Below, piece after piece: positions 1,378-64,000 of a DNA stretch of 64,000 nucleotides. The stretch's first letter is position 1, and each line of letters begins with the position of its first letter. The position numbers and the translations under genes are program-made. A model generated the notes under the pieces. That model saw only the letters and a program-made list of their open reading frames with translations. It was not told the DNA's origin and made no database searches. The stretch spans positions 105,770 to 169,769 of the forward strand of contig MFUV01000004.1 in the NCBI GenBank assembly GCA_001787005.1, written 5' to 3'. This DNA is from Candidatus Nomurabacteria bacterium RIFCSPLOWO2_01_FULL_39_18. Lineage in GTDB: Bacteria; Patescibacteriota; Minisyncoccia; Phycocordibacterales; UBA9973.

Positions 1378-1380
1378 ATT

Positions 1381-2562: not shown

Positions 2563-2567
2563 ATTTT

Positions 2568-3032: not shown

Positions 3033-4458
3033 CAAATACATAAAAGGTATGGCAACCCTGGAGCTACTCATAGCTTTCGTGATACTTATACTATGCACCA
3101 GCGCCGTCATTATGGTTGCCTTCGGCAATCAGTCTTTCGCGGTTGATTCAGAAACGAACAATGAAGCTATCCAAAAAGCGCAGAAAGCACTGGAAGATAC
3201 AAGAGCTCTCTCTAGGCAGGATTTTGATTTAGTAGTTTCTGACCCAAATCCCATCCAAGATGGTATCTATACTAAACAAATTATAGTTGATCCATTTGCA
3301 GCCACGGAATGCAGTAGGCAGATCGAGTCTAAAATCACATGGGATACTGATATGAATCAGCCTCAAAGTATCAACCTATTCAGTCGTGTTGGAGATATTC
3401 CGGAGGCATTAGACTTGGGGGGAGACTGCTCGGCATCGCCACCCGGACCAGGATTCACTGTAGGTGGAGGACTGAATATGGGAGGTGCTAAAACAAATGG
3501 TTTAGATGTGTTAAATAAAAAAGTTTTCATCGCTCTTCAAGATCCTCCCGGGTTAGCATATGTAGACGCCACAAACTATGCGGCTCCCGTTCAAATAATG
3601 AATAGTTACGATGTTGGTTCTGAAGTAAATGATGTAGATATTGCCCGTGATCTAGATACCGGAGAAATCTATGCATATGTTGCTAGAGAAACAAATACCA
3701 ATCAGCTTCAAATTATTGATGTGACAGATATTAATAACCCGATTTTTGTTAGAAATGTAGATTTACCAGAAGTTGGAGGTAGTTCCGAACCGGAAGGATA
3801 CCGAGTTTATTATTATAAAAATAGACTCTATATGACCACCAAAGAAACTGCAGGTCCAGAACTCCATATATTCGATGCTTCGGACCCAGTAACTTCTTTC
3901 CCAAAGTTTGGAATAAAAGAATTAAACAGAACAGTGAATGATCTTGTGGTAGTTGATCAAAATATTGGTGGCACGAATTATTCTGTCGCTTACATGGTGG
4001 CCGATTCAGATCTAAAAGAGATTGGAGTATTTGATGTTACTACTGCAGGAACTGCAAACGAAATGTTTTCACTGAATATGACAGGTGGTGCCGATGCTTA
4101 TTCTTTATTTTTCTCTTCTACATCCAAACTTTTGTATGTAGGACGACAGGCGAACGCTGGTCAAGAATTTTTTGCATATGATGCATCTAACTCCTTTTCC
4201 ACACTTATTGAAAGAGCAAAGAGAGAAGTTGGTGAACATCCTATCGGTCTTCGTATTGCTGGTGCCTATGCATACATGGTTACAAATGATAGTAATGAAG
4301 ATTTTCAAACTTACAATGCTGATCCAGCGACTGGTCTTTCACATATTCGTACTTATAATGCTTCAAATAAAGGCACAGGCATAGATTACGAAGATCAGTT
4401 TATTTATGAAACTATGGAACAAGGAAGCGAAACTCTTCAAATCTACTATGCTCCCTAG
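3010..4458 (+). CDS. large pilin-like protein with LVIVD-repeat (beta-propeller-like) C-terminal domain; putative pilus tip adhesin
   Basis: Leader MKAQSTGNKYIKG|MATLELLIAFVIL is prepilin-like; repeated YAYVA..LQIIDVTD / YSVAYMVADSDLKEIGVFDVT / AYAYMVTND motifs typical of LVIVD repeats. Confidence 0.6.
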   Translation: MKAQSTGNKYIKGMATLELLIAFVILILCTSAVIMVAFGNQSFAVDSETNNEAIQKAQKALEDTRALSRQDFDLVVSDPNPIQDGIYTKQIIVDPFAATECSRQIESKITWDTDMNQPQSINLFSRVGDIPEALDLGGDCSASPPGPGFTVGGGLNMGGAKTNGLDVLNKKVFIALQDPPGLAYVDATNYAAPVQIMNSYDVGSEVNDVDIARDLDTGEIYAYVARETNTNQLQIIDVTDINNPIFVRNVDLPEVGGSSEPEGYRVYYYKNRLYMTTKETAGPELHIFDASDPVTSFPKFGIKELNRTVNDLVVVDQNIGGTNYSVAYMVADSDLKEIGVFDVTTAGTANEMFSLNMTGGADAYSLFFSSTSKLLYVGRQANAGQEFFAYDASNSFSTLIERAKREVGEHPIGLRIAGAYAYMVTNDSNEDFQTYNADPATGLSHIRTYNASNKGTGIDYEDQFIYETMEQGSETLQIYYAP

Positions 4459-4930
4459 GTCATTAAATAAAGGTTTCACTCTTATAGAGGTCTTAATTTA
4501 CATAGTCCTTTTTTCCATTCTCATGGGAGGTGGTTTTATAACTGCATATCAAATGATTGATGGTTCCAGGAAATTGAGCGCGAAAGATACTTTACAAGAA
4601 GAGGGTAATTTTATTATGCGAAAAATCAGCTGGGCACTGACAAGTGTTGATCCTACGGTTGCCACAATACCCTCAGCAGGAACTTCCCCCAACCTTAGAG
4701 TGACGAAATACGACGGAAATCAAATTGACGTTCAACTTAATGGAACAAAAATAGAAATGAAGCAAAGTATTAATGGCAGCACTTTTCGCCCGATAACGAC
4801 TGACAATGTTTCTGTCAGTAGTCTGCAATTTACATATATAACACCAGTGGGATTAGAGCCCGCGGGTATTACGGCAGCAGCAGTTATAAATGGAATAAAC
4901 TTTACCATTACAAAATACATGAGAAAATAA
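4448..4930 (+). CDS. minor pilin-like protein (prepilin N-terminus)
   Basis: MLPRSLNKG|FTLIEVLIYIVLFSIL; ORF track starts at 4406 but the internal Met gives a canonical short leader. Confidence 0.6.
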   Translation: MLPRSLNKGFTLIEVLIYIVLFSILMGGGFITAYQMIDGSRKLSAKDTLQEEGNFIMRKISWALTSVDPTVATIPSAGTSPNLRVTKYDGNQIDVQLNGTKIEMKQSINGSTFRPITTDNVSVSSLQFTYITPVGLEPAGITAAAVINGINFTITKYMRK

Positions 4931-4931
4931 T

Positions 4932-5348
4932 GTGAAAATGATTATTCTAAATAAAAGAAGAAATAAAGGATTCATCGCTCTCATATCTGCCATTGTCATT
5001 TCGGTGATTTTGTTACTCATTGCAGCCAACTTAAGCTTGACTTCATTTTATGGCCGCTCGAATATTTTAGATTCAGAACTTAAAGAAAGAAGTTCTGCCT
5101 TGGCTGAAGCTTGCGCAGATACAGCAATTTTAAAATTAGCAAACAATAAAGATTATGTATTAGTTGCCGCTGATCACAGCATCTCCGTGGGAACGGGACA
5201 ATGTGATATTGTTTCTTATTCTTTTCCCCGAACTGGAAACATAACCATCATAACAAAAGCTAATTATAATAATACTTATTTTACTACTCTACAGATTGTA
5301 GTTAATTCAGCAGCGAACATGGCTGTTGTTTCTTGGGAAGAAATATAA
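4932..5348 (+). CDS. minor pilin-like protein
   Basis: RRNKG|FIALISAIVISVILLLIA hydrophobic pilin-like N-terminus (no Glu5). Confidence 0.5.
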   Translation: MKMIILNKRRNKGFIALISAIVISVILLLIAANLSLTSFYGRSNILDSELKERSSALAEACADTAILKLANNKDYVLVAADHSISVGTGQCDIVSYSFPRTGNITIITKANYNNTYFTTLQIVVNSAANMAVVSWEEI

Positions 5349-5457
5349 ACATCATATCAACAGTCCCCCCTTTACAAACTGGCTACTATGTAGTAGTCTA
5401 CGGGACATATTATTAATATAAATAAGTCGAATATTATAAGTAAGTTATTATAAATTT

Positions 5458-5916
5458 ATGAAAAAAATCGTTAAAAATAAGGGTTTTACGTTGATTGAGA
5501 TTTTGGTCGTTATCGCTATCATTGCCATTTTGGCAGCTATAGTGCTTGTTGCTATCAATCCTGCTAAGAGATTCCAGGATGCTAGAAACACACAACGAAG
5601 AGCAAATGTGGAATCTATCTTGAGCGCAGTTCAACAGAATATGGTTGACAATAAAGGAATCTTTACATGCGCTGGCCCAGGAGCAATTCCTGCTGTCGCA
5701 ACTGTCATGGAGGACACAGGGGGCTATGATATAGCAGAATGTATTAGTGCTTACCTTTTAGTTCTTCCGGTTGATCCACAAAATGGTTCATGGACCGACG
5801 ATGACAATTATGATACAGACTACACTATTAAACAGGATGCTACTACTAAACAAGTAACTATCAATGCTCCGTCTGCTCCCGGAGACGGTGGAGGAACAAT
5901 TTCTGTCACTCGCTAA
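5458..5916 (+). CDS. pilA: type IV major pilin (PilA-like)
   Basis: MKKIVKNKG|FTLIEILVVIAIIAILAAIVL canonical class III signal; followed by a strong terminator. Confidence 0.8.
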   Translation: MKKIVKNKGFTLIEILVVIAIIAILAAIVLVAINPAKRFQDARNTQRRANVESILSAVQQNMVDNKGIFTCAGPGAIPAVATVMEDTGGYDIAECISAYLLVLPVDPQNGSWTDDDNYDTDYTIKQDATTKQVTINAPSAPGDGGGTISVTR

Positions 5917-21541: not shown

Positions 21542-22084
21542 TTAAAAACGCATATTAAACCAGTCTAATTCGTATTCTTTTTTAATTAAAACTCTCTCCC
21601 CTTCACCAATACTTTTGTGATCTTCCAATCCGAGTATTTTTATTGCTTCTTGCACATGTTCATGACTTTTCCCTTCAATTTCCAGATAAGCGGGCATCCC
21701 TGGGTACTGATCCAGGTCAAATTGCCAATCCTTTAGGAGGAAAGATGCACGATCTTTTTCTTGATGGGCATAGTGCTCTATCCCGACATTTTCAAAAAGC
21801 TTCCCGGCAAGGATAGCATCACCAACACTTATATTTATCTCGTCAGAATGTCTGGTATTGCCTGTTATTTCTGGTAATGACTTCCAACTTATTTCAGACT
21901 TCCCACCCGTACTAGTTCGAATTCTTAAATACCATGGATCGTCGCCTTCATGGGTCAAACCTTTGGGTCCGTACCAATCGATAACAAGTCTTGTGTTCTG
22001 TATCTCTTTCGCGCCAAGTGCTTTTAACTTTTCTTTTACTTCTTCCTTATCTACATTTAAAACTTTCGTTTCAATTTCGTGCAT
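21542..22084 (-). CDS. CYTH-domain protein (triphosphate tunnel metalloenzyme / CyaB-like)
   Basis: N-terminal HEIETKVL (ExExK), LRIR and C-terminal YLEIE motifs. Confidence 0.7.
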   Translation of the reverse strand: MHEIETKVLNVDKEEVKEKLKALGAKEIQNTRLVIDWYGPKGLTHEGDDPWYLRIRTSTGGKSEISWKSLPEITGNTRHSDEINISVGDAILAGKLFENVGIEHYAHQEKDRASFLLKDWQFDLDQYPGMPAYLEIEGKSHEHVQEAIKILGLEDHKSIGEGERVLIKKEYELDWFNMRF

Positions 22085-22093
22085 AAAATCTAT

Positions 22094-22501
22094 TTAATCA
22101 ACAGGGCTTTCTACTTGCTCGTTTGTAAAGATAAAACTAGTTAAACCAGAATAGTACTGACTTTTAAACCATTTGACAGCTTCAGGGTCAACTTTGTTTA
22201 AAGCTGACAAGAGAGCATCCATTCTTACTTGATAAGTATAATTATCATTAGAATGTAATCTACTGTGACCACCCCCTACTTTTGGCGACACTAATGATCC
22301 GCCTGTAAACTCGGGCTCACCTGGGTCTAATGGGACTTTTATTTTGCCTAATGCTTCCTTAACAAAATCTGGAACAAAATCTGGAAAATTCTGAGGATTT
22401 AAAGTGATGTGCATATTATGTACTTGTTTCCCATGAAGTACCTCCGTAGGGAATTTTTCCTTCCCATATTCTTTTTTCCATGCTTCTGCTCTTGGATCCA
22501 T
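22094..22501 (-). CDS. hypothetical protein
   Basis: ORF only; embedded in the CYTH/ndk operon. Confidence 0.4.
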   Translation of the reverse strand: MDPRAEAWKKEYGKEKFPTEVLHGKQVHNMHITLNPQNFPDFVPDFVKEALGKIKVPLDPGEPEFTGGSLVSPKVGGGHSRLHSNDNYTYQVRMDALLSALNKVDPEAVKWFKSQYYSGLTSFIFTNEQVESPVD

Positions 22502-22509
22502 ACTAGTTA

Positions 22510-23064
22510 TTATAACTCATTTAATTTACTGTAAAGCATGATGTCATACTTGCCATCGATGACTTGATCTTCTTTTGAAACACCAAGGGTACTGAGAAAA
22601 TCGAATAATTCCTCTTGAATTTTCTTTCTGTCTTCGTAATCCTCGTGCTTTACCATCTTCTCTACTTCGATAAACTCTCCAAGTTGTTCCACAACATCAA
22701 GTACTATCTCCATATCTTTAAAGCTTGTCTTGATTCTCTTTTTATCCACGGTGGGGAGCTTATCCCATTTCATAAGTTCTAGAATCTCAACCATCATCGC
22801 CCCGTCCTTAATTTCCATTTCTCTTTCAATGCAATCCTGGTGACTACTCTGCGGAATCTTTAGGGTAAAAAAATATTTATCATTCTGTTTACGCACGCGT
22901 AAAACAGTCGCGCCCATAGGAACATCAGGATAAGGGGTTCCTTTTGGTGCAAACACATAATCAATTTGATGAAGCTCTTCGGAAAATTTACACCCAAGAT
23001 TTTGAAGTTTCTCCTTTACGGCTTCTCTATCCTTCAAAACCGCTTTTACTTCAACTTCATACAT
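22510..23064 (-). CDS. CYTH-domain protein (second paralog)
   Basis: YEVEVKAVL (ExExK), LRVR, FIEVE motifs. Confidence 0.7.
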   Translation of the reverse strand: MYEVEVKAVLKDREAVKEKLQNLGCKFSEELHQIDYVFAPKGTPYPDVPMGATVLRVRKQNDKYFFTLKIPQSSHQDCIEREMEIKDGAMMVEILELMKWDKLPTVDKKRIKTSFKDMEIVLDVVEQLGEFIEVEKMVKHEDYEDRKKIQEELFDFLSTLGVSKEDQVIDGKYDIMLYSKLNEL

Positions 23065-23069
23065 AAATT

Positions 23070-23663
23070 TTACTCATCCACTCCGAAACGTTTGTAGTCG
23101 TAAGTCGTGTCATCGCCGAACCAGTGTTTTATTTCATGCTCTGCTTCTTCGGGAGTTTCGGAACAATGAACAATATTCATTACTGCCCGTTTTTCTTTAT
23201 TCGCTAATGCCGGAGAATCAATCGAGAAATCCCCACGAATCGTCCCCACTTCTGCCAGATACGGCATCGTCGGTCCCGCAATTTTTCTCACCACATCTAC
23301 TGCATGCACGCCCTGCACAACCATTTTTACCAGCGGGGCAGATTTCATGTAGTCAACTAGCCATTTGCGAATTTCGGGACCAATTTGCGCAGGATCAATT
23401 GTGCCAAAATCAGCCAGCGCATCATAGCCATATTTTTCATAAGTTGAAAGAGTCTTGTGTCCAAGCCGAGTAATCCATTCTTCATTTTTTGGATAATGAG
23501 TGTCGAGCTGGTCATGAGATGGCTGGAACATTTCCAATGCCACAATCTTCAAATCTCGCTGTTCAAAACGACGGATAATCTCCCCCGTCAAGCCCTTGCG
23601 GACTCCGTCCGGCTTTATCATCACATATGTCTTTTCCTCTTTTGGATGTTTCATATTAACCAA
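23070..23663 (-). CDS. ndk: nucleoside diphosphate kinase (long form)
   Basis: TYVMIKPDGV ... NIVHCSET (NxxHxSD-like active-site His region). Confidence 0.75.
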   Translation of the reverse strand: MVNMKHPKEEKTYVMIKPDGVRKGLTGEIIRRFEQRDLKIVALEMFQPSHDQLDTHYPKNEEWITRLGHKTLSTYEKYGYDALADFGTIDPAQIGPEIRKWLVDYMKSAPLVKMVVQGVHAVDVVRKIAGPTMPYLAEVGTIRGDFSIDSPALANKEKRAVMNIVHCSETPEEAEHEIKHWFGDDTTYDYKRFGVDE

Positions 23664-23691
23664 TATAACAGAAAAAAATAATTTTGCAAAA

Positions 23692-24255
23692 TTATTTTTT
23701 TCTCATTCCTTTGAAAGTTATAGAGGAATAGTCGTCTATATTAATTCCATATCTTAGATAGCCTTCTTTGGCAGAAAAAATAAGACCATCTTTTGGATCA
23801 AGACCTATTTTTTGCGCAGAATTCTGTGCTTCTTTTATTGATGTTGATTCAACTTCAAGATAAGTGGGAATCTCCGGCCAAGAATCAATATCAAAAACTG
23901 TTTTTCCTTTCCTATATCTTATCTTTTTATTCTCTTCTTCCCTCTTTATCACAAGTCTGATAGATTTGAGTAATTCATAAGTTTTCTCATAATCATCTAC
24001 TATTACTTCTATTTCTTTCATTCCGGCATTGTCTCCATATCTTCCTTTTACACTTTCTTTGTAAGCTAGTGTTATTTCTTTCCCGTTGGTTCGTAACCTC
24101 AGCCATCGATCTCTCCGATTCATCCGAAAGTCTGGATAATCAAAAAGAGCTCGGCGGTAATCGTACTCTCCCACTTTCTCTGCGCTGATTTCTGCAAGCT
24201 TCTTCTCAAGTTTCGGGACGTCAACCTCTAAAAATGTAATTTCAAATTCTTCCAT
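23692..24255 (-). CDS. CYTH-domain protein (third, divergent paralog)
   Basis: EEFEITFLEVD, WLRLR, TYLEVE motifs; same size as the other two. Confidence 0.6.
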   Translation of the reverse strand: MEEFEITFLEVDVPKLEKKLAEISAEKVGEYDYRRALFDYPDFRMNRRDRWLRLRTNGKEITLAYKESVKGRYGDNAGMKEIEVIVDDYEKTYELLKSIRLVIKREEENKKIRYRKGKTVFDIDSWPEIPTYLEVESTSIKEAQNSAQKIGLDPKDGLIFSAKEGYLRYGINIDDYSSITFKGMRKK

Positions 24256-43974: not shown

Positions 43975-44799
43975 CTAGCTGGTGTATTTTCTTATCTCCT
44001 CACAAAGTTTTTTAGCCTCTGCCTTGGGATTATCGGAGAAAATCACTCCCCGAGAGGAGTTGATGATGAGTCCAAGACCTTCGCTATTCAACCCCGCCTT
44101 CATAACAGCTTTTAGGTCTCCACCTTGCGCCCCTATTCCTGGCACAAGGAAAGTCATGTCGCCTGTAATTTCTCGAATTTTTTTCATCTCTTTGGGATAA
44201 GTTGCGCCAACCACGAGCATGCAATTATTATTTTTATTCCAACTTTTTGAAACTTTTTCTGCCATCACCAGCCAAAGAGCCTTGCCGGCAAGAGCATTCA
44301 AGGGCCAGGAGCGTTGAATATATAAATCTTGAATTTCCTTTGCACCTGGATTGGAAGTACGGCAAAGAAGGATGCAACCTTTGTCTTTCCGATCTAAAAA
44401 GGGTTTCAGCGCTTCACTCCCCAAATATGGATGAAGCGTAATCGCGTCGAAGCCAAACCAATCAAAAAGCGAATCCACATAACCCTGGTTGGTGTTCCCG
44501 ATGTCCGCCCTCTTGCAATCACAAATGGTAAAAATATCTGGATATTTTTTTTGTAGATATTCCATAGTCATTTTTAATTCTTTTATTCCCTTATCCCCAT
44601 GCGCTTCATAAAAAGCAATATTGGGCTTGAACGCGGAGGCGTATTCGTGTGTCTCTTCTATAATCCATTTATTGAATTCAAATTGTGGGAATTCTAATTT
44701 AAAAAATCTTTCAGGAATTTTTGAAATATCCGCATCCAACCCCACGCAAAGAAGAGAATTTATTTTCTTAGCTCTTTTGTTGTATTTATTGATAATCAT
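43975..44799 (-). CDS. pyrF: orotidine 5'-phosphate decarboxylase (type 2)
   Basis: LCVGLDAD...KRADIGNT...VPGIGAQGG. Confidence 0.8.
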   Translation of the reverse strand: MIINKYNKRAKKINSLLCVGLDADISKIPERFFKLEFPQFEFNKWIIEETHEYASAFKPNIAFYEAHGDKGIKELKMTMEYLQKKYPDIFTICDCKRADIGNTNQGYVDSLFDWFGFDAITLHPYLGSEALKPFLDRKDKGCILLCRTSNPGAKEIQDLYIQRSWPLNALAGKALWLVMAEKVSKSWNKNNNCMLVVGATYPKEMKKIREITGDMTFLVPGIGAQGGDLKAVMKAGLNSEGLGLIINSSRGVIFSDNPKAEAKKLCEEIRKYTS

Positions 44800-45416
44800 T
44801 TGGTGTGCTCTTTAAACCAATTTTCGACTTTTTTTAGCTTATCGCCTCTTATCATTCCAAGCTTTTTGACTTCATCAAAAATAGTGGGAAAGGAGCTAAT
44901 GTGGTGTAATTTAACTTTTGCCTTACTAAAGGCATCCCTTGCCTCTGGAAAATCATAACTTACAATCACTAAACAATTTTTTACTTTCGCACCCTCTTTC
45001 CTCAAGTTCTCTACTGCGCGAAGACTACTATCCCCCGTTGTTACTAAGTCTTCAATTAGCAAAACATTTTTATTCAAAACGCTTCCTCCTTCTACCATTC
45101 GCTTTGTCCCATGATCCTTTGCCTTTTTGCGCACAAAAACAGAAGGTATTTTAAGTAGAAACCCTAAGGCTGCACTGTGAGGAATCCCCGCTGCTTCTAC
45201 CCCAGCTATCACATCTAGTTTTATTTTTTCTCTTTTAATAATCTCGGCAAAACTTTGAATGATAATTTGCCATTCATTCGGATGAAATGGTAATTTTCTA
45301 TTGTCTATATATATGGGGGAAACGATGCCAGACTTAAAAGTAATGGGGTTATCAGGCATAAATCCAACAGCTCCGATTTTAAGAAGCGCCTTCGCAACCT
45401 TTTGCTCGGTATTCAT
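44796..45416 (-). CDS. pyrE: orotate phosphoribosyltransferase
   Basis: PRTase motif VLLIEDLVTTGDS; start adjusted to an internal Met. Confidence 0.8.
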   Translation of the reverse strand: MNTEQKVAKALLKIGAVGFMPDNPITFKSGIVSPIYIDNRKLPFHPNEWQIIIQSFAEIIKREKIKLDVIAGVEAAGIPHSAALGFLLKIPSVFVRKKAKDHGTKRMVEGGSVLNKNVLLIEDLVTTGDSSLRAVENLRKEGAKVKNCLVIVSYDFPEARDAFSKAKVKLHHISSFPTIFDEVKKLGMIRGDKLKKVENWFKEHTK

Positions 45417-46528
45417 ACTTTTGATTTTAACCCCTCCTTTATCTCTTTCGCAAGATAGGGATTCCACATTGCTCCTGTTGCGGACATGACAATGTCCGCC
45501 CCGGCATCTCGGTATTCAAAAAAGTCATCGGCATTCATAACTCCTCCCACGCCGATAATGGTATATGAGAAGCTAAGCTCCTCACGAATTTTCTTCAATC
45601 GCCTTACCATTTCGAGCCCAGCCCATTTGATAGCATGCCCGCATACTCCACTCCGCAGTCTGCCCTTGCCGGGCAGGGCTTGATTGCCTTTTTCATCCAC
45701 AATCTCTGCAGAAATAGTATTGATGGCAGAGATGGCTTGTATAATATTTCCAATTTCTTTTACAAAATTTCGCAACATTTCGCCATCTTTAAAATAAGCG
45801 ATTTTTATAATAAGAGGAGTATTACCTACAACTTCCTTTATGGCTTTAGCAACCATCACGCTCCTTTGCGTATCATAACAAAGTAAATTATTCGTGCCTT
45901 CGTTGGGGCAACTTAAGTTGACTTCAACTATTTTAACCCCGGTATTTTTCAAAAACTCGGCAGTTTTTTTAAAATCGTCAATAAAATCATCTACGCTTTG
46001 CATTTCTTTCTTGGTATCTTGGAAGCTCCCAATAACTACCTGACCTTCGCGTGTATTTTTAACTACATTGCCTAAATCTTTTTGCCAGAATTCCGGCTCA
46101 AAAGATGGTACTCCGAATGAGTTTGTAATTGAAAGGGGTTTGTCGTATTCACGACTCGCGATTAGTTTATTGTTTGCTTTTTCCAGAGTTAAGTCACCTT
46201 CAACTTTAACCGATAAAACATTTGGCCACGGATGGCAGGGATACTTAAGACTGCGAACAGTTTTATAAGTAACGATATCAAAACCTTTATCTAGTGCTGC
46301 TTGCACAAAATTACCATTGAGTAATGGTCCCGCCGGAATTCCAAAAGGCGAATTTACTTTAAAACCCAGAAAATCATACCTCTTACCAAGGGGAACCCTT
46401 GGTATTTGTATTCCATCGGCAAAAGCACCAAAAGGACCTTGCTCGAAGTTCTCTTCATATGATTTCCCTGGATCGTAGAATGGGGTAAGAAGCATATTTA
46501 GTATAGTAGCAATAAATCGCCAAAACAA
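45413..46528 (-). CDS. pyrD: dihydroorotate dehydrogenase-family protein
   Basis: FGIPAGPLLNGNFVQAALDKGF, VNLSCPN, IIGVGGV motifs. Confidence 0.7.
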   Translation of the reverse strand: MFWRFIATILNMLLTPFYDPGKSYEENFEQGPFGAFADGIQIPRVPLGKRYDFLGFKVNSPFGIPAGPLLNGNFVQAALDKGFDIVTYKTVRSLKYPCHPWPNVLSVKVEGDLTLEKANNKLIASREYDKPLSITNSFGVPSFEPEFWQKDLGNVVKNTREGQVVIGSFQDTKKEMQSVDDFIDDFKKTAEFLKNTGVKIVEVNLSCPNEGTNNLLCYDTQRSVMVAKAIKEVVGNTPLIIKIAYFKDGEMLRNFVKEIGNIIQAISAINTISAEIVDEKGNQALPGKGRLRSGVCGHAIKWAGLEMVRRLKKIREELSFSYTIIGVGGVMNADDFFEYRDAGADIVMSATGAMWNPYLAKEIKEGLKSKV

Positions 46529-46537
46529 AAACTGTCT

Positions 46538-47575
46538 TTATAGATTCGCTTTCTGCTCTTTTTGTAGAACGGGTAAATAATATTTTTTAGCCAAGCCAAT
46601 TATCCAATCATGCATTTCGGCAATCACATTCCTGTGGCTTGATCCAATTGAATAAATCGCAGGGCAACCAGTTCGGTCCCTTTCGTCTAAGACAAAAGGG
46701 GTTACGCTTGATAAAACTTCTGGTTTTATTTCGATAAGTAGTTCCCCACTGTCAGTCTCTCTGAAATAAAATTTATCTAATTTAAAATCGCTGGCTTCAT
46801 CAGAATCAAGCATGTTGAGATCACTATATTTACTTTCGATGTTTGCAAATAAATGTATGTGGGAGCTTGCTAGGGCATAAATTAAATGTAGAGAGCCATT
46901 GGCTAATTTTTCGAATTTATCAATTGGCATTTTCTCCCTAAACTGATTTTCATAAACCTTGGGCAAGATCTTGATGGTTCCCCATAAAGTATTGATGGCA
47001 GTTAAAATTCCTGAACGTATCTGTGCATGAGGGTCTTTAACCCCTCCAACCCCTCCCTCAAGCATTAGAAGCTTACTATACCTGTCATAGGCCATTGATT
47101 TTAGATCTTCACCCGAAAGATAATCGTATCTCTTTTTTCTCTTATCTTGCTGCCACTCTACTAGCACTCGTTTCATGAAAGTTTTATTGTTATTCATTAA
47201 AAAATTGGCAACGTCTTTGGAATTTTTCAAACTTGATAATAAGAACTTGATTACGGAGTCTGGTAAAAAAACATCCGGCATCGCCACTCTAACCAGACCT
47301 GGAGAATGAGCCTTGATACCCTCAAGTGTCTTTAGCCAAATTTCTTCAATAAATATAGCAAGTAGAGCATTAATTTCGGCTTTCACCCTATTTGGCTTTT
47401 CTAATGATCCAAGATGTTCAGCCGCTTCAAACTCACCCTTCTCAAAACCTTTTTTAATAGGACGAATACCAATTTTATCAACACCTGCTATTGTGTGTAG
47501 ATGATCAATGATTTCCTTGTTCGGTTTTGGCTCACCAGGCATTACCAATATAATAGCAGAAACCAAGGAAATCAA
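46538..47575 (-). CDS. hypothetical protein
   Basis: ORF only. Confidence 0.35.
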   Translation of the reverse strand: MISLVSAIILVMPGEPKPNKEIIDHLHTIAGVDKIGIRPIKKGFEKGEFEAAEHLGSLEKPNRVKAEINALLAIFIEEIWLKTLEGIKAHSPGLVRVAMPDVFLPDSVIKFLLSSLKNSKDVANFLMNNNKTFMKRVLVEWQQDKRKKRYDYLSGEDLKSMAYDRYSKLLMLEGGVGGVKDPHAQIRSGILTAINTLWGTIKILPKVYENQFREKMPIDKFEKLANGSLHLIYALASSHIHLFANIESKYSDLNMLDSDEASDFKLDKFYFRETDSGELLIEIKPEVLSSVTPFVLDERDRTGCPAIYSIGSSHRNVIAEMHDWIIGLAKKYYLPVLQKEQKANL

Positions 47576-53693: not shown

Positions 53694-54497
53694 TTATCTA
53701 CCCTCTTGCAAGGGTTTAATTATGCTAAAAATATATTTATTTATTTCACTAGCGTTACTAAGAATAAATTTAGTATTTGTATAATCTTTTTCTTCTTCAC
53801 CGGAGAAATCAATGATTTTCGCCCCAGCCTCAAGGGCAATGAGCTTACCTGCAGCAAAATCGTGAAACTCAATATTATCAGTAATTATTGATTCAATCTT
53901 TCCCAAAGCAAGTAGACAGTAATCATGAGCCCCAGACCAGTTGTAAAGAACCCTCTTACAACCTGCACCAACTAAAGAAAACATTAGTTTGCCCAAATAA
54001 TCACGGTCAATTTTGTAGCCACAAATATAGGCAACGGTTGTCTTATTTTTATCAATAACATTATTAACTTTTATTCGCCTGCCGTTTACATATGTCCCAC
54101 CATTTTTTATGGCAGAATAAGTCTGATCTATTATTGGCTGATAAATAACACCCGCAACAGATTCATTTTTATAGAGTAAGGCGATTGAAATAGAAAAATT
54201 AGGGATACCTATTACAAAATTATTTGTGCCATCCATGGGATCTATAACTAGGGTATAGTCAGAATTTTTATTAGTTTTACCTTCTTCCTCGGAGTGAATG
54301 TTATACCGGGGAAATTCTTTCTTTAAGATTTTTAAAATACTTTTTTCAGAATTTAAATCCGCTTTCGTTTGAAAATCCGCTAAAGTTGATTTCTCGGTTA
54401 CATCCATAACCTGACCAAAATATTTTCTTAAGACCCTCCCTCCGGCATGAGCAGCTTTTATTAAAATTTGCAGATCTTTACTTGCTGTCCTTTTCAT
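53694..54497 (-). CDS. inositol monophosphatase family protein (SuhB/CysQ-like)
   Basis: VIDPMDGTNNF and FHDFAAG motifs; start adjusted to an internal Met. Confidence 0.7.
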   Translation of the reverse strand: MKRTASKDLQILIKAAHAGGRVLRKYFGQVMDVTEKSTLADFQTKADLNSEKSILKILKKEFPRYNIHSEEEGKTNKNSDYTLVIDPMDGTNNFVIGIPNFSISIALLYKNESVAGVIYQPIIDQTYSAIKNGGTYVNGRRIKVNNVIDKNKTTVAYICGYKIDRDYLGKLMFSLVGAGCKRVLYNWSGAHDYCLLALGKIESIITDNIEFHDFAAGKLIALEAGAKIIDFSGEEEKDYTNTKFILSNASEINKYIFSIIKPLQEGR

Positions 54498-54498
54498 A

Positions 54499-54990
54499 TT
54501 ATTCAAATTGCCTTCCAATAATATTGTTCGGGCTCTCTTTGTTAAAAAGCATCTCGCTATTTTCCAATAAGTAAACACTTTTAATGCCGGCAGAAGTCAT
54601 TTGCTTCCAACACGGCTCACAGCACCACCAGTGACCCCATAGATATAAATCTGCCCCTTCGGGATCTTCTCCATTCTCCTTTGCATTAGCGATTGCTTTG
54701 GGCTCACTATGATTTTTGGGATGGCAGCCCTCACAGAGTTCATACCCCTGGCCCGTTGGAATTCCCCGCTTTACCCTTTCACATTCATGAGTCTCATGGT
54801 AGGTGCTACCGTTTGCCCCTCTACCAATAATTTTCCCGTCTTTCACTACAACGCTTGATGTAGGCATTGTTTTGTCTAATGAATTCAATCTTCCGAATTC
54901 TTTAGCTTCGGCCATAAATGGATTCGATAGTGGAACGTATAAAACAAAACGTCCTTCTGGTTGATATGGATATTTGATATTTTTATTCAT
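54499..54990 (-). CDS. dCMP/cytidine deaminase zinc-binding protein
   Basis: HSEPKAI ... CCEPC zinc ligands; divergent from thyA; ORF-track start 55176 rejected. Confidence 0.7.
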   Translation of the reverse strand: MNKNIKYPYQPEGRFVLYVPLSNPFMAEAKEFGRLNSLDKTMPTSSVVVKDGKIIGRGANGSTYHETHECERVKRGIPTGQGYELCEGCHPKNHSEPKAIANAKENGEDPEGADLYLWGHWWCCEPCWKQMTSAGIKSVYLLENSEMLFNKESPNNIIGRQFE

Positions 54991-55008: not shown

Positions 55009-55842
55009 ATGACATCTTTTGACACAATATATCAGGGAATTATCAAAAAAATAATGGACGAAGGTATTGAAGAGCTGAATGAACGAACGGGTCATAAGAC
55101 AAAAGCTCTGCCCGGAATCACATTTTCTCTTGATATTGAAAAAGATGGTTTCCCCATTCTCACGCTTCGCAAGCAACCGTTAAAATCTCCAATCGCCGAA
55201 CAGGTTTGGTTTGTACAGGGAGAGAAAGATACAACATTTCTGCGAAAATTTACCAAAATGTGGGACCCTTTTATGGAACCCGATGGCACACTGCCATTCT
55301 CCTACGGCTGGAGGTGGCGCAACCACTTCGGTCGCAATCAGCTCGGAAACACAATCGAGCTTCTGGAAAAAGAACCAAGTTCGCGCCATGGGGTGATCAT
55401 CACTTGGGATCCAAAAGACGATGGACATGGCGGAACACCTAAGAAAAATATCCCTTGCCCTTTTGCCTATACTATAAATATAATCGGTGGCAGACTGCAC
55501 ATGCACAACATTGTCCGCTCTAACGACATGATACTTGGCTGTCCATTTGATGTTTTTGGATTTGCTCTGCTACAATGCATGATCGCGCAGAGACTCGGCG
55601 TTCGTCCGGGAATTTACACCCACACAATATCCAATGCCCATGTTTATGACAATCACTACGAGGGAGCAAGGGAAATAATAAAAAGAACGAATGATCACAA
55701 AAAGGTAGAATTGCATCTGCCAAAAGATTCATTAAAACGAGCAGAGCAAAAAGATGAAGATTTGGTGGGAGAAATTCTGGCAGATTTACAAGCTCAATAT
55801 AACCCCCTTCCGCCAATCAGTGGACTAGAAATTGCTTTATGA
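55009..55842 (+). CDS. thyA: thymidylate synthase
   Basis: IPCPFAYT (Cys nucleophile region), RSNDMILGCPFDVFGFALLQCMIAQ. Confidence 0.85.
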   Translation: MTSFDTIYQGIIKKIMDEGIEELNERTGHKTKALPGITFSLDIEKDGFPILTLRKQPLKSPIAEQVWFVQGEKDTTFLRKFTKMWDPFMEPDGTLPFSYGWRWRNHFGRNQLGNTIELLEKEPSSRHGVIITWDPKDDGHGGTPKKNIPCPFAYTINIIGGRLHMHNIVRSNDMILGCPFDVFGFALLQCMIAQRLGVRPGIYTHTISNAHVYDNHYEGAREIIKRTNDHKKVELHLPKDSLKRAEQKDEDLVGEILADLQAQYNPLPPISGLEIAL

Positions 55843-56372
55843 TTTCCCTTATTGCGGCAATTGGCAGAAATAATGAACTTGGTAAAGGAAATGATTTAGT
55901 CTGGAAATTTCCTGCTGATCAAAAGTTTTTTCGAGAGACCACTTCTGGACATCCGATAATTATGGGACGAAAGACTTTCGAATCCCTCGGGCGTAGCCTT
56001 ACGGGCGAGCCTATCGGCAGGCCCCTGCCGAATCGACAAAATATAGTAATTACTAGAGACAAAAACTATCTACGGAATGGCCTGCCTGCGCAGGCAGGCG
56101 TAGATGTTGTACATTCATTGGACGAAGCATTAAAATTGGTTTCTAAGGAAGAAGAGGTTTTTATAATCGGCGGCGCGGAAATTTTCAGACAAGCCATGTC
56201 CACTGCTGACAGGCTCTACATTACCCACTTTGACGCGGAAGATAAGGGTGCGGATGTGTTTTTCCCAGAAATTGTTCCGGTAGTCTGGAATGAAATATCC
56301 CACCAAGAATTCAAACCGGACTCAGAAAATCCAATCCCTTATATTTTTTCAGTCTATGAAAAATTTACTTGA
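55839..56372 (+). CDS. folA: dihydrofolate reductase
   Basis: MISLIAAIGRNNELGKGNDLVWKFPADQKFFRETT... Confidence 0.85.
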   Translation: MISLIAAIGRNNELGKGNDLVWKFPADQKFFRETTSGHPIIMGRKTFESLGRSLTGEPIGRPLPNRQNIVITRDKNYLRNGLPAQAGVDVVHSLDEALKLVSKEEEVFIIGGAEIFRQAMSTADRLYITHFDAEDKGADVFFPEIVPVVWNEISHQEFKPDSENPIPYIFSVYEKFT

Positions 56373-56448: not shown

Positions 56449-56778
56449 CTAGGGATCTTCGGGTGTTCTGATCCTGATAAAAACATCTTCGCCCTCGGGA
56501 GATTTCTCTTTTTTATATTTTCTTTTTTTATTTATTTCAATTTTTCTAATTAATTCTTTCTCCAGATCAAAACCCATGTTCTCACACATACCGAGAATGA
56601 ATATCATCACATCTGCAAATTCCTCTGCCACGCCCGGCTGATTTTTGTTGTGTTTAGAAAAGGCTTCGGAGAGTTCTTCGTGCGCTCGGCAAAATTCCAG
56701 CGCCACATTGGTGAGGTTGAACCCCTTTTCCACTTTGTTCCGCATTACTTCTTTTTGTAATTCTTTCAAGTCAACCAT
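56449..56778 (-). CDS. MazG-like nucleotide pyrophosphohydrolase
   Basis: All-alpha, EExxE...D pattern: EFCRAHEELSEA ... AEEFADVMIFIL. Confidence 0.6.
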   Translation of the reverse strand: MVDLKELQKEVMRNKVEKGFNLTNVALEFCRAHEELSEAFSKHNKNQPGVAEEFADVMIFILGMCENMGFDLEKELIRKIEINKKRKYKKEKSPEGEDVFIRIRTPEDP

Positions 56779-56891: not shown

Positions 56892-57896
56892 TTAATCTTT
56901 TTTGCCGAGTGCCTTCAAAATCTTCAAATACATTGCTTCAACAATCTTTTTCTGTTTTCCCCCAGTCGTCACATAATGGTCTAACCCAGGTGCGGCGTTG
57001 ATTTCGATTACGTAATATCTAGAGTTTTTAGGGTTTTTGGCAATATCGCCTTTTGTAACCATAATATCTACACCTGCAATCCGAAGCCCCATATCTCTTG
57101 TGAGCTTTATCGCAATTTTACAAAAATCAGGGTGGATAGTATTTGTCATATCAACGGCATCTCCGCCAGTGGACAAATTGGCATTGTCTAACAAAAATAT
57201 TTTTTCACCTTTGGCAGGGATGCTGCCAAAAGTATAGCCAAGTTTTTTTAATTTAATTTTTATTCTTCTGTCTTCGAAATTTATTCTCGTGTCTCGCTCT
57301 GTTTTTTCAAAAAGTTTTTGCTTTTTCTTTAGCAAGCTAAATATAGAATTTTTACCATCCCCCGTCACAGAAAGCGGGATGCGTTCATATGCAGAAATTA
57401 TTTCTTTATCCAAAACAACAATCCGATAATCCCGGCCCGGTAAATATTTTTCGATGATAGCAACTCTGTCTATTTTGAATACCTCAAGGAGCGCATGACG
57501 CAGTTTTACGGCATCAGAAACAAGGCACACTCCAAGACCTTGGCTTTGGCTGTTGGGTTTTACGATAAGTGGATAGCCAAGTTTCTTTGCATAACTTATC
57601 CCATAGGGAATAGTACGTTTACTTTTTATTATCTTAGCCCAGCTGTCTTTGAAAATAGTTTTGCCTTCTGCCACCGGATAGCCCTTCTTTTTCATGAAAA
57701 ATTTCGCATAATCCTTGTCGCGAGCTATGTCGGAAGAAGCGATGTGATTGAGGTCGAGGGAATACATTCGCAAGGACCGCACCACACCATTTTTATATAT
57801 TATCTGAGCAGCGATCCCCCACTCTGGTTCTACTATCGCTCTCGCTCCGACTTTCGATGCAAGTTTTTTAATTAAGTTTGTTAAATAAGGGAGCAT
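56892..57896 (-). CDS. ATP-grasp ligase, RimK/CofF-like
   Basis: YPLIVKPNSQSQGLGV, EINAAPG ATP-grasp signatures. Confidence 0.65.
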   Translation of the reverse strand: MLPYLTNLIKKLASKVGARAIVEPEWGIAAQIIYKNGVVRSLRMYSLDLNHIASSDIARDKDYAKFFMKKKGYPVAEGKTIFKDSWAKIIKSKRTIPYGISYAKKLGYPLIVKPNSQSQGLGVCLVSDAVKLRHALLEVFKIDRVAIIEKYLPGRDYRIVVLDKEIISAYERIPLSVTGDGKNSIFSLLKKKQKLFEKTERDTRINFEDRRIKIKLKKLGYTFGSIPAKGEKIFLLDNANLSTGGDAVDMTNTIHPDFCKIAIKLTRDMGLRIAGVDIMVTKGDIAKNPKNSRYYVIEINAAPGLDHYVTTGGKQKKIVEAMYLKILKALGKKD

Positions 57897-58566
57897 AAAT
57901 ATCTTTGCTAGCTTTTATTCTTAATTCTTTTTTATTTATTTTGTTGGTGAACACAACTGGAGCTCCGGTTATGATCGCGAGCGGTGTTCTTTCATCTCCC
58001 TCCCCCGTGGAGAGCACTGCCGCGGTGGCCAGGCTGTCAGCAACGTCCGTCCTTGAGAATCTCAATATTCTGCCAAAAATATCTTTTCTGCCGATATAAT
58101 TTCTAACGCCCTTAAATCCAGCATAGCCCAGAGCCAAACCTATTGCTCCCATGCGAAATGGCAAAAACCCCGAATCTGTTATTAGAACTCCTAGATTTTT
58201 CAGCCGGAATTTTTGCGCCAATTTTTTACGTAAAAATTCCGCACTCTTAAAACTATCTTTGGGTAGAAGCATGAGCTTCCCGTTACCATTTGATTCATCA
58301 ATGCCAGAAGCAGCCATAACCATCCCGTCTTTAATGGTGAACCAAGTATTTTTAGTTTTAATAGCAAGAGTGCTTTCTTGTTTTATTAAAGCAATTTTCT
58401 GTTTTTCATTTCTATGCACTACTGTTCTGCCTTCTGACAATGCGACGATCTTAGAAGTTACAACAAGAATGGACTTGTCGGGAATTTTCTTGATATGCTT
58501 AAAAATAAATTCTGGTAAATTTTCATTCTCACGAAAAATACTGGTCCTAGCCGTTTTTATTTCCAT
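57868..58566 (-). CDS. CofE-like (F420-0:gamma-glutamyl ligase family) protein
   Basis: VVTSKIVALSEGR, Gly-rich loops; overlaps the ATP-grasp gene. Confidence 0.5.
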   Translation of the reverse strand: MEIKTARTSIFRENENLPEFIFKHIKKIPDKSILVVTSKIVALSEGRTVVHRNEKQKIALIKQESTLAIKTKNTWFTIKDGMVMAASGIDESNGNGKLMLLPKDSFKSAEFLRKKLAQKFRLKNLGVLITDSGFLPFRMGAIGLALGYAGFKGVRNYIGRKDIFGRILRFSRTDVADSLATAAVLSTGEGDERTPLAIITGAPVVFTNKINKKELRIKASKDIYAPLFNKLN

Positions 58567-58594: not shown

Positions 58595-59302
58595 TTATAT
58601 TTTTGGTTCATGACGAAGCGCACCAAAGAGATATTTGTGTTCTATCATAAAACCAAGATTCAGGATATGCTTCTTTTCCAAGAAGGACAGAAGGTTGTTG
58701 ACTAATACAAAAGAGACACAGATACCAATCGCAAATAATGTGCGCTCAAGTGCCACAATTGGTATAAGCGATATCCAAACCGGCGCTGGTAGTGCAAAAA
58801 ACCATATCCACAAAGCACCACCGACTGCGTGAGCACTAAAAGTAGCACCAAGCGCTCGCGCTAGAAGAAATCTGTCGCGGAAAAAATAGGCAACAATCGG
58901 AATTGTCCAGAAAAGAGCAAAGTACCAAACGGTTCGGCCAATGGGATGAACAACGAAAGCAATAATCGCAAGCATTGGAATAATTAGATTTAATTTTCCT
59001 TTCCGGGTAAAATACAGCACTGCAAAAAGCATCGGCAAAAAACGAATAATTGTTCCAACATCCTCTATCATCGCTCCATGAAATAAAAAGTTGATAAACT
59101 GCATCAAAAACACTGCTATTACGCCTGGTAAACTGCCTATAAAAGCTCCTGCTACTGGTGCAAAAGCATCATACACCATGAATTTCGCTTTTGATCCTTC
59201 CAATTGGGTTATTGGAATTTGTAAAGCAATAAATCCTAAAACTGTAAAAATAACAACAAAAAGAATGTTTCTTTTTGTAAAATATTGTTTAATGTTTGAC
59301 AT
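58595..59302 (-). CDS. polytopic membrane protein (possible small transporter component)
   Basis: 6-7 hydrophobic helices. Confidence 0.35.
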   Translation of the reverse strand: MSNIKQYFTKRNILFVVIFTVLGFIALQIPITQLEGSKAKFMVYDAFAPVAGAFIGSLPGVIAVFLMQFINFLFHGAMIEDVGTIIRFLPMLFAVLYFTRKGKLNLIIPMLAIIAFVVHPIGRTVWYFALFWTIPIVAYFFRDRFLLARALGATFSAHAVGGALWIWFFALPAPVWISLIPIVALERTLFAIGICVSFVLVNNLLSFLEKKHILNLGFMIEHKYLFGALRHEPKI

Positions 59303-59327: not shown

Positions 59328-59753
59328 CTATTTTACTACCTCAATGCCCATTGATCGAGCAGAACCGGCGATGATGTTAATGGCGCCCTCGTCGTCTTTA
59401 GCATTCAGATCTGCCCTTTTCTTATTGGCAATTTCTAGTGCTTGCGCTCGAGTAATTTTTCCAGCTTTCATCGCAATGTTTTTGCCGGAACCTTTTTCTA
59501 CCCCAGCCACTTTTAGAATAAGCCCTGTAACGGGCGGAGTTTTCACCACGAAATCATAGCTTCGATCTTCATAGACAGTAATAGAAACTCCCACTTTGTC
59601 TCCTGCCATCTTTGATGTTGCCGCATTGAATTTAGTGACGAAATCACCAATATTAATACCAGCCTGACCAAGCGCGGGGCCCAAGGGCGGCGCAGGAGTA
59701 GCTTTTGCAGCCTGAATTTGAAGTTTTATTTTTTTGGTTATCTTTTTTGCCAT
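59328..59753 (-). CDS. rplK: 50S ribosomal protein L11
   Basis: 141 aa; [14 protein letters not shown]. Confidence 0.95.
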
Positions 59754-63074: not shown

Positions 63075-64000
63075 CTAATTATACAATTTCTGTATCTTTT
63101 CAGCCAGCTCATAACTATTCCCGTGCCCAATTAACCCTAAATAAGATTGAATCGTTTCTGGTTTTGGATCGTCGCCCACATTTTTTAACATTCTTCGCTT
63201 TGTACTCGTCCTTAAAACTCTATGATGAGCAAAGTGTACCCAACCAAGGAAATCAATGCCGGAAGCAATGGTTTTGATAAAAACTTTATCTGGATGTAAT
63301 TGTAATTTAAGCTTTTCTTCTAAAAATTTAGAGATTTTAGGTAAAATATTTTCTAGACACATTCTGTTCGGCCCTAAAATGACAAAATCATCTGCGTATC
63401 GGATATAGTATTTCACTTTCAATTCCCTTTTCATGAACTGATCAAATTCATTCATGTAGATATTCACAAGAAGCTGACTGGTAAGATTCCCGAGTGGCAA
63501 CCCCTTTTTGCATATATCAGCTAAAGCGTAAATGTGTATTTTGGAAGAAAAACTATCTAAAACTTGCGACAGTAACCAAAGAAGGTTTTTGTCTCTTATA
63601 TGTTTTTCTAAAATTTTCTTCAAAATTCGATGATCAATATTCGCAAAGAATTTTTTAATGTCGCATTTCAATACCCAACATGTTTGTGTATTGTTTTTTG
63701 AAACTTTTCGGAAAAAGCTTCGAAACCTGTTTATGGCCTTGTGTGTACCTTTATTTATCCTGCAAGAATAGGAGTCATAGATAAACTTGGAGTCGAAATA
63801 TTCATAAAGCTCCTGGTATATTAGATGGTGAAGTATTCTATCTCTAACCGTCGCTTTGTGTATTTGCCTCGGTTTCGGATCAGAAATGTTGAAAGCTGTA
63901 TAGCTCCCATGTTTATAGGTTTTGTTTTTTAAGTCATTATATAAATCAAAAATATTGTCCATCAACTTAGCTTGAAATAAGATAACATCTTTGCGACCTT
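63075..64000 (-). CDS. diversity-generating retroelement (DGR) reverse transcriptase, Brt-like; N-terminus runs off the window
   Basis: KTYKHGSYTAFNISDPKPRQIHKATVRDRILHHL (near Brt N-term), DIKKFFANIDH, GLPLGNLTSQLLVNIYM (DGR-specific SQ motif 4), YIRYADDFVIL; frame stays open to 64000. Confidence 0.8.
   Translation of the reverse strand, partial: GRKDVILFQAKLMDNIFDLYNDLKNKTYKHGSYTAFNISDPKPRQIHKATVRDRILHHLIYQELYEYFDSKFIYDSYSCRINKGTHKAINRFRSFFRKVSKNNTQTCWVLKCDIKKFFANIDHRILKKILEKHIRDKNLLWLLSQVLDSFSSKIHIYALADICKKGLPLGNLTSQLLVNIYMNEFDQFMKRELKVKYYIRYADDFVILGPNRMCLENILPKISKFLEEKLKLQLHPDKVFIKTIASGIDFLGWVHFAHHRVLRTSTKRRMLKNVGDDPKPETIQSYLGLIGHGNSYELAEKIQKLYN

Follow-up and report, generated by a model that had tools for sequence, protein, structure and literature searches.

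Chlamydiae lack folC, and CT611 ('folC2'), a COG1478 gene in their folate cluster, complements an Escherichia coli folC mutant (de Crecy-Lagard et al. 2007, PMC1971073), so that a CofE homologue acting on folate is already a known kind of enzyme. Within the strictly conserved Chlamydia cluster folB-folKP-folA-folC2-ct610, the last gene (ct610, CADD) encodes a non-canonical para-aminobenzoate (pABA) synthase (Adams et al. 2014, PMC4161248). Here we analyze two overlapping genes in a 64,000-nucleotide stretch of DNA (the window; contig MFUV01000004.1, positions 105,770 to 169,769) from Candidatus Nomurabacteria bacterium RIFCSPLOWO2_01_FULL_39_18, a member of the Patescibacteria/Parcubacteria group of the candidate phyla radiation (CPR). 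The first gene encodes a 232-amino-acid (aa) ligase of the CofE superfamily (57868-58566, minus strand; PF01996/COG1478), and the second a stand-alone ATP-grasp ligase of 334 aa (56892-57896, minus strand; PF08443 RimK 53.9 bits, PF07478 45.8 bits). On balance, we favor the view that the locus is a folate acquisition-and-retention module within a thymidylate-synthesis island, provided with an accessory ATP-grasp enzyme. The CofE-like protein is a putative FolC2-type folate/dihydropteroate gamma-L-glutamate ligase, for which folate is the likely substrate.

A search of the literature available to us found no description of this gene pair in the CPR. Folate metabolism in the CPR was the subject of a 2025 study that dealt with folA, glyA, and folD and reported no folate transporter in any CPR genome examined (PMC11974145).

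The CofE-like protein scores higher with a FolC2-type model than with CofE

The 232-aa protein matched the Pfam model PF01996 (F420_ligase) with 128.9 bits against a gathering cut-off of 25 (E 2.5e-37), residues 7-201 aligning to profile positions 3-218 of 218. A first-pass annotation made from the sequence alone had assigned it to the CofE family and had left that assignment to be decided by a profile search, which thus upheld it. The best NCBIfam model was TIGR04132 (intra_fol_E_lig, 'putative folate metabolism gamma-glutamate ligase'), which scored 195 bits over the full length (residues 1-230 of 232 to model positions 1-236 of 241), while the CofE model TIGR01916 gave 139.5 bits, below its equivalog cut-off of 180.65. 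All 26 aligned relatives ranked the two models in the same order, with best E-values of 1.2e-68 for TIGR04132 and 5.6e-43 for TIGR01916. Because the protein falls below the trusted cut-offs of both, it was filed as a new clade, in neither equivalog. As judged from these profiles, it is a member of the CofE/FbiB/FolC2 superfamily that stands nearer the FolC2-type model than CofE and forms a clade of its own. The protein collection held 3674 homologues at E≤1e-5. A phage origin of the gene pair was also considered and was rejected, as scans of IMG/VR with both protein profiles (CofE-like and ATP-grasp) were empty.

The nearest solved structure was CofE of Archaeoglobus fulgidus (Af-CofE; 86.7 bits, E 1.5e-23), and alignment to it showed that the catalytic motifs GIDxSN, ITD, and GEG are kept. 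The protein shares fold and motifs with CofE and FbiB's N-terminal domain (TIGR01916; PDB 2g9i, 7uld), and presumably also their chemistry, in which an NTP-dependent acyl phosphate is formed and gamma-glutamate is then added. It differs from them in scoring under the CofE cut-off, in its lack of an F420 biosynthetic context, and in its deazaflavin-binding residues, which are deleted, replaced, or not alignable. The F420 chromophore is contacted in Af-CofE by F92, G153-C155, and R234 of the dimer partner (PMC10861534). In our pairwise alignment, the CPR protein lacks a stretch of nine residues that includes F92 and has F134-L135-P136 opposite G153-R154-C155, and the C-terminal region with R234 could not be aligned. 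By this comparison, the chromophore pocket of Af-CofE is not conserved.

These results bear on the possibility that the database name is correct, that is, that the protein is a coenzyme F420-0:L-glutamate ligase acting on F420 or F420-0 scavenged from methanogens or actinobacteria, with the ATP-grasp enzyme adding a CofF-like alpha-glutamate cap. Membership in PF01996 and the 139.5 bits to TIGR01916 speak for this possibility, as do the name itself, which PGAP and JGI give to most homologues, and a transporter gene next to that for the CofE-like protein in 61 of 65 loci; in addition, some Paceibacteria reportedly live on methanogens. Yet the CofE score is under the cut-off and lower than that of the FolC2-type model, the pocket residues are not conserved, and the ATP-grasp protein reached only 31.7 bits with the CofF model against a cut-off of 300. 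Gene calls in ~85 kb of the source contig and in 160 related loci (≤17 kb) included no cof genes, and the CPR are not among the producers listed in a review of F420 distribution. Moreover, folP, CADD, or folB replaces the transporter in some lineages, and the cluster otherwise consists of folA and thyA or thyX. We consider scavenging of F420 highly improbable and an F420 ligase function of the CofE-like protein very unlikely, in agreement with the first-pass annotation, which had doubted it on the ground that a CPR organism is unlikely to make F420.

Folate and thymidylate genes are conserved around the CofE-like gene

To describe the neighborhood, one genome per species (GTDB) was scanned with the CofE-like protein, and 80 loci out of at least 319 matching were examined. 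Their proteins were 57-70% identical to that of the window, and almost all were labeled as belonging to the Patescibacteria group (Parcubacteria, Nomurabacteria, Paceibacterota, etc.); one record among the 80 (L086) was titled Gammaproteobacteria. Neighbors were counted with the window proteins as tblastn probes and only in loci with enough flank, and open reading frames (ORFs) between the anchors were clustered and their representatives profile-scanned (65 species loci). rplK was found ≤2 kb upstream of the CofE-like gene in 62 of 71 loci. Within 6 kb downstream, dihydrofolate reductase (DHFR) and ThyA were each found in 52 of 63 loci and MazG in 44 of 63.

In the window itself, folA (DHFR, 177 aa; 55839-56372, plus strand; PF00186 181.6 bits) and thyA (277 aa as called; 55009-55842, plus strand, the longest ORF starting at 54961; PF00303 177.9 bits) lie 1.5-3 kb from the CofE-like gene, and ThyA exceeds the cut-off of TIGR03284 (122 bits against 108). 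With them are genes for a MazG-like nucleoside triphosphate pyrophosphohydrolase (109 aa; 56449-56778, minus strand; PF12643 29.3 bits) and a dCMP deaminase-family protein (163 aa as called; 54499-54990, minus strand, divergent from thyA; PF00383 35.8 bits). Pfam matches and gene calls thus confirmed the thyA, folA, dCMP deaminase, and MazG neighbors listed in the first-pass annotation. In locus L004, ThyX replaces ThyA and DHFR together, which ties the CofE-like gene to folate-dependent dTMP synthesis and not to DHFR as such.

The slot between rplK and the CofE-like gene held a transporter in 61 of the 65 loci (Vut_1 in 51 and the 235-aa protein type of the window in 10), folP followed by a CADD-family gene in two (L029 and L073), and folB in one (L058); it was empty in one. 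The order in L029 and L073 is rplK-folP-CADD-CofE-like, with 294 bits to dihydropteroate synthase (DHPS) and 194-198 bits to fol_rel_CADD. It recalls the adjacency of CADD (ct610) and folC2 in Chlamydia, here in a cluster that also contains folP, and is the strongest evidence for glutamylation of dihydropteroate or folate. The occurrence of folP, CADD, or folB in the transporter slot fits a local supply of a pteroate/folate precursor. In 23 of the 65 loci, the transporter and CofE-like genes are separated by an inserted gene for a RibD_C/DHFR-fold reductase of ~180 aa (e.g., L011 4509-5051), which often overlaps both neighbors and is additional to the canonical downstream folA. The window has no such insertion. 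This reductase may act on imported oxidized folate or pterin. The overall pattern is that of a pteroate/folate source, through uptake or synthesis, directly before the CofE-like gene and folate-dependent thymidylate synthesis directly after it.

Taken together, this conserved context strongly supports glutamylation of folate for its retention over a role in F420 metabolism. Of the substrates entertained in the first-pass annotation, a folate-like one is now the best supported, through TIGR04132, the conserved order of folate and dTMP genes, and the Chlamydia CT611 precedent; a peptide or protein found no support in the gene context.

The window's own occupant of the transporter slot is a polytopic membrane protein of 235 aa (58595-59302, minus strand), encoded 28 nt upstream of the CofE-like gene and 25 nt from rplK (59328-59753, minus strand; Pfam Ribosomal_L11). 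Neither Pfam nor NCBIfam gave a match to it even at E = 10; its UniRef homologues are named 'ECF transporter S component'. When a low-confidence AF2 model of the protein (pLDDT 65) was searched with Foldseek, the top six matches were all ECF S components (RibU, FolT, BioY, ThiT), and these matches were weak (E 0.06-0.4, TM 0.39-0.48 normalized to the query). The protein, which sits where most relatives have Vut_1, is a candidate uptake protein for a vitamin (folate or pteroate), possibly with an ECF S-component-like fold. Further upstream, secE-nusG-rplK continue on the same strand into the membrane protein gene and then the CofE-like gene, with gaps of 25-28 nt. A terminator scan found none that was convincing inside the operon, with only two weak intragenic matches from rplK to the ATP-grasp gene, and the counts in a combined promoter and terminator scan were at or below shuffled expectation.

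We compared the locus with the Chlamydia folC2 system. The two have in common the protein superfamily, a size of ~240 aa, TIGR04132 as the top model end to end, and a folate cluster near folA as the genomic setting, and in some relatives the CPR gene directly follows folP and a CADD-type pABA synthase gene. Both hosts have reduced genomes, and no canonical (Mur-ligase) folC was called in ~85 kb of the CPR source contig. The CPR protein differs in belonging to a distinct clade, with 195 bits against the 350-bit cut-off of TIGR04132. Its gene is mostly coupled to an uptake protein, as for salvage, and not part of a complete de novo cluster, and it is often translationally coupled to an ATP-grasp gene, which the Chlamydia operon as described does not contain (PMC4161248).

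The ATP-grasp protein resembles the G domain of CphA and the C-terminal module of GshF

Among NCBIfam models, the 334-aa ATP-grasp protein scored highest with cyanophycin synthetase (TIGR02068; 184.8 bits, model positions 206-466 only, cut-off 850), followed by GshAB (157.7 bits) and N-acetylglutaminylglutamine (NAGGN) synthetase (105.7 bits). The models for the RimK family (TIGR00768; 53.4 bits, cut-off 143.4), MptN (NF040720; 42.5, cut-off 350), and CofF (31.7 bits, as given above; TIGR04443) scored far lower. A profile search of the PDB gave a similar order, with CphA2 at 132 bits, CphA1 at 127, GshAB at 121, Ddl at ~40, and RimK at ~28. With the AF2 model (pLDDT 76) as the query, Foldseek found CphA1 (7wae) at E 6e-22, in an alignment that covers the G domain only, and RimK (5zct) at 2e-12, the RimK structures ranking 19th or lower. 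We therefore rejected a RimK/CofF identity, all three family models being under their cut-offs, and a D-Ala-D-Ala ligase identity (45-62 bits against cut-offs of ≥243). A true cyanophycin synthetase was rejected as well, as the N and M domains are absent from the 334-aa protein. The name 'cyanophycin synthetase', which PGAP gives to many homologues, is accordingly a misnomer in view of the missing N and M domains and of 184.8 bits against the 850 cut-off.

On this profile and fold evidence, the protein is classed as a stand-alone ligase of the CphA-G-domain/GshF type. The G domains of CphA1 and CphA2 and the C-terminal module of GshF (GshAB) are its closest relatives in both sequence and structure; it differs from them in lacking the CphA N domain, the Mur-ligase M domain, and the gamma-Glu-Cys ligase domain. 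The 'RimK/CofF-like' label of the first-pass annotation holds at the level of the ATP-grasp superfamily and fails at the level of the subfamily (RimK 53 and CofF 32 bits, against 185 for cyanophycin synthetase). CofF, which adds an alpha-glutamate onto gamma-F420-2, and MptN, which acts on tetrahydromethanopterin, share with the CPR protein the fold superfamily and the proposed logic of a second ligase; they belong to the RimK subfamily, which the CPR protein does not, and RimK structures rank well below those of CphA and GshF. What the first-pass annotation described as a CofE plus CofF-type pair is thus an analogy of logic and not homology.

Nine G-domain residues have been described for CphA1 of Trichodesmium (TeCphA1): K261, H267, R309, R323, N394, S396, E450, G456, and R458. 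Of these, R309 binds the C-terminal alpha-carboxylate that is to be phosphorylated, and R458 binds the alpha-carboxylate of the incoming aspartate (PMC9427784). Seven of the nine are kept in the ATP-grasp protein (K261 as K113, R309 as R158, R323 as R172, N394 as N240, S396 as S242, E450 as E298, and G456 as G304), among them the counterparts of the ATP-binding lysine (K113) and of the Mg ligand E450 (E298). The large loop reads LRATANLSTGG in CphA1 and LLDNANLSTGG here. These conserved residues make the protein look catalytically competent. Its probable reaction is phosphorylation of a terminal alpha-carboxylate, followed by coupling of that group to an amino compound. The nucleophile pocket, on the alignment, differs from that of CphA1; the two replaced residues are taken up below.

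The ATP-grasp protein is more conserved than its CofE-like partner, with 74-81% identity in the top matches. Stand-alone homologues of ~330 aa numbered 682 representatives at E≤1e-30. Representatives of ~620-650 aa were tandem double ATP-grasp proteins (five of the six listed were scanned). No fusion to CofE was found in the eight proteins scanned, up to P0509 (547 aa), whose N-terminal 217 aa had no Pfam match.

The two genes are coupled where paired, and the partnership is facultative

As stated in the first-pass annotation, the CofE-like and ATP-grasp genes overlap: both ORFs are present on the minus strand, and the sequence, read directly, shows a dual-coding overlap of 29 nt in which the end of the former is the start of the latter (57868-57896, minus strand). 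An overlap recurs in 67 of 76 paired loci at a length of 4-41 nt (modes 29 and 17 nt), and the residues encoded within it are invariant in both frames and in both protein families. These two observations show that the overlap is no artefact of a chance ORF, and it implies translational coupling of the two genes where they are paired. We also looked for specificity positions in the CofE-like protein that track the presence of the ATP-grasp gene. The columns that separate paired from unpaired proteins lie only in the dual-coded C-terminus and so reflect the overlap and not function; they were rejected as specificity positions.

Among the species loci, an ATP-grasp gene followed the CofE-like gene in 29 of 74 (39%) and was absent in 45. 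In a reverse test, the ATP-grasp protein was used as the query against metagenome contigs, which gave 58 loci with enough upstream sequence. A CofE-like gene lay directly upstream in 42 of these; in the other 16, from about ten distinct lineages, the ATP-grasp gene had neither a transporter nor a CofE-like gene adjacent. The order in 14 of the 16 was nusG-rplK-ATPgrasp, followed by mazG, folA/thyA, or both as far as the contig reaches. In L114 and L115, a Vut_1-CofE-like pair occurred further downstream, after a second copy of rplK. The ATP-grasp gene was seen throughout inside the same rplK to mazG/folA/thyA(thyX) island, CofE-less loci included. We conclude that the transporter (or folP/CADD) with the CofE-like gene, on the one hand, and the ATP-grasp gene, on the other, are separable modules that use the same slot in the same island. 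Their partnership is facultative, and in neither survey is the ATP-grasp gene an obligate partner.

We note that in L114 and L115 (Ga0208958_1002012 and Ga0208375_1003866) the two rplK copies are ~2 kb apart, the first followed by ATP-grasp-comEB and the second by Vut_1-CofE-like-comEB-mazG-folA. This arrangement may have arisen by duplication within the locus, or the assembly may have joined two strains that differ in architecture.

The same surveys bear on whether the ATP-grasp enzyme has anything to do with the folate tail. The CofE-like gene could be FolC2-like and the ATP-grasp protein an independent L-amino-acid or peptide ligase that merely shares the operon downstream of rplK, making a dipeptide, a glutathione-like thiol peptide, or a short cyanophycin-like oligomer. 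The absence of the gene from 61% of species loci with a CofE-like gene, and its position alone after rplK in the 16 metagenome loci, are what such independence would predict; the nearest characterized relatives (CphA1/2, GshF, and NAGGN synthetase) form peptide bonds between amino acids, and the family of stand-alone homologues described above is large. Against this, every occurrence seen was in the same folate and thymidylate island, 88% of paired loci have the gene translationally coupled to that for the CofE-like protein, and no gamma-Glu-Cys ligase, Mur-ligase M domain, or cyanophycinase partner was seen nearby. We regard an independent ligase as unlikely.

The loci without a CofE-like gene also raise the converse idea, in which the ATP-grasp enzyme is itself a folate/pteroate glutamate ligase, a third non-homologous type of dihydrofolate synthase/folylpolyglutamate synthase (DHFS/FPGS) that substitutes for the CofE-like enzyme. 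The order rplK-ATPgrasp-(comEB)-mazG-folA-thyA in about ten lineages, where DHFR and ThyA are kept and the locus has no CofE-like gene, is consistent with such a substitution. The ATP-grasp enzymes MptN and CofF glutamylate pterin and deazaflavin cofactors elsewhere, and their models match weakly here. Yet the two enzymes occur together in 39% of species loci, which would not be expected of redundant isozymes in such small genomes. Furthermore, L073 has folP-CADD-CofE-like and no ATP-grasp gene, so that the latter is not needed for the dihydropteroate step there, and the ATP-grasp-only loci lack the transporter too, which leaves room for a CofE-like module at another place in those genomes. 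We find this idea improbable.

Proposed route for folate retention

In the folate module that we favor, a small membrane transporter (the 235-aa protein in the window, Vut_1 in most relatives) would import folate or a pteroate-type compound. The CofE-like enzyme would then activate the terminal carboxylate as an acyl phosphate, using an NTP (GTP in CofE), and add a gamma-linked L-glutamate, as Chlamydia FolC2 does. Glutamylation would trap the cofactor in the cell and improve its use by ThyA or ThyX and DHFR. The dCMP deaminase and MazG would supply dUMP and, with ThyA and DHFR, complete the dUMP-to-dTMP cycle.

For the ATP-grasp enzyme, we tentatively propose a third step, in which it would phosphorylate the alpha-carboxylate left free on the terminal gamma-linked glutamate and join an amino acid to it. 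Its substrate would be chemically analogous to the Cys carboxylate of gamma-Glu-Cys that GshF uses, and the two-step logic would parallel CofE followed by CofF in F420-producing archaea, or the addition of glycine to gamma-Glu-Cys. Our best guess for this protein, though a doubtful one, is addition at an alpha-carboxyl of folate's gamma-glutamyl tail, and a role in alpha-glutamylation is one that we can only infer. E. coli has an activity that forms alpha-linked folylpolyglutamates; to our knowledge, no gene has been assigned to it. If the third step takes place, Paceibacteria might make a folate with a non-canonical tail, a CofE-type gamma-glutamyl chain capped or extended via its alpha-carboxylate by a CphA/GshF-type ATP-grasp enzyme, an outcome that we think rather unlikely as a whole. 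A residue other than glutamate might be added, as the site for the alpha-carboxylate of the incoming substrate carries the invariant Arg-to-Asp replacement. In the CofE-less lineages, the ATP-grasp enzyme might be a third, unrecognized type of folate glutamyl ligase.

Several observations weigh against this folate module. The 195 bits of the CofE-like protein are under the trusted cut-off of 350 for TIGR04132, and its status as a separate clade has to be counted here too. The Vut_1 representatives pass the NCBIfam equivalog model 'queuosine precursor transporter' (126.8 bits, cut-off 50.95; e.g., L036 6838-7503), so that folate uptake is not predicted by the family name; either this is a Vut_1 clade with pterin or folate specificity, or the adjacency is non-functional. 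No tetrahydrofolate (THF) or preQ1 riboswitch was found in the window from 52 to 64 kb at E≤0.1, the missing THF riboswitch being the one that counts here, and a riboswitch search of eight related loci returned tRNAs only. For the ATP-grasp step, the two TeCphA1 residues that are not kept are the P-loop residue His267, replaced by Q119, and Arg458, replaced by D306. Both replacements are invariant in the CPR family and set it apart from CphA1, and they imply that the nucleophile may not be a standard acidic amino acid. Finally, an ATP-grasp gene is present in only the 29 of 74 species loci, and 16 of the 58 metagenome loci have it with no CofE-like neighbor; the enzymes are thus separable, and the ATP-grasp enzyme may not need the CofE-like product.

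The interest of the locus lies mainly in its scale, with the 3674 homologues and at least 319 species-representative loci noted above, and also in the systematic misannotation to which it points and in the coupled ATP-grasp protein as a candidate alpha-linked folate-tail ligase. If the proposal is true, the names 'coenzyme F420-0:L-glutamate ligase' and 'cyanophycin synthetase' are wrong for thousands of CPR proteins and would falsely suggest F420 or cyanophycin metabolism in the CPR. Non-orthologous replacement of FolC by FolC2, as seen in a few intracellular bacteria, would extend to a very large radiation, and the locus would offer a concrete uptake-plus-trapping module by which cofactor-auxotrophic episymbionts retain folate to serve thymidylate synthesis. 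Should the tail prove non-canonical, it would represent a new cofactor variant, made by a new class of enzyme acting on folates.

Other features of the window

Non-orthologous thymidylate synthases share the slot after folA in the related loci (L007-L166). In most lineages, ThyA is only 26-32% identical to that of the window; window-like ThyA (66-91% identity) occurs in a minority of lineages, always with a window-type dCMP deaminase beside it. A gene for an inositol-monophosphatase/HisN-like phosphatase (53694-54497, minus strand; PF00459 181 bits) directly follows the dCMP deaminase gene, a position repeated in several relatives with window-type ThyA, and its product could be a nucleotide phosphatase of the dTMP island. 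Genes resembling pyrD (DHO_dh), pyrE (Pribosyltran), and pyrF (OMPdecase), named from single Pfam hits, are clustered at 43975-46495 (minus strand) beside a gene for a 334-aa protein with no Pfam match (46538-47542). The presence of these late steps of de novo pyrimidine synthesis in a CPR genome fits the nearby dTMP island.

Elsewhere, a reverse transcriptase gene (PF00078 RVT_1, 336 aa; 63075-64000, minus strand, cut by the window end; L001 4118-5492) adjoins one for a bAvd accessory protein (PF22296). Judging from the domain matches, this pair has the arrangement typical of a diversity-generating retroelement. At 21542-24255 (minus strand), just downstream of a gene for a 913-aa DUF8128 protein, genes for three CYTH-domain proteins are interleaved with those for nucleoside diphosphate kinase and a 135-aa protein. 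A type IV pilus/T2SS-like block (148-5916, plus strand) encodes a T2SSE ATPase, a T2SSF platform protein, and several N_methyl prepilin-like proteins, and within it lies a gene for a 482-aa protein that has no Pfam match.

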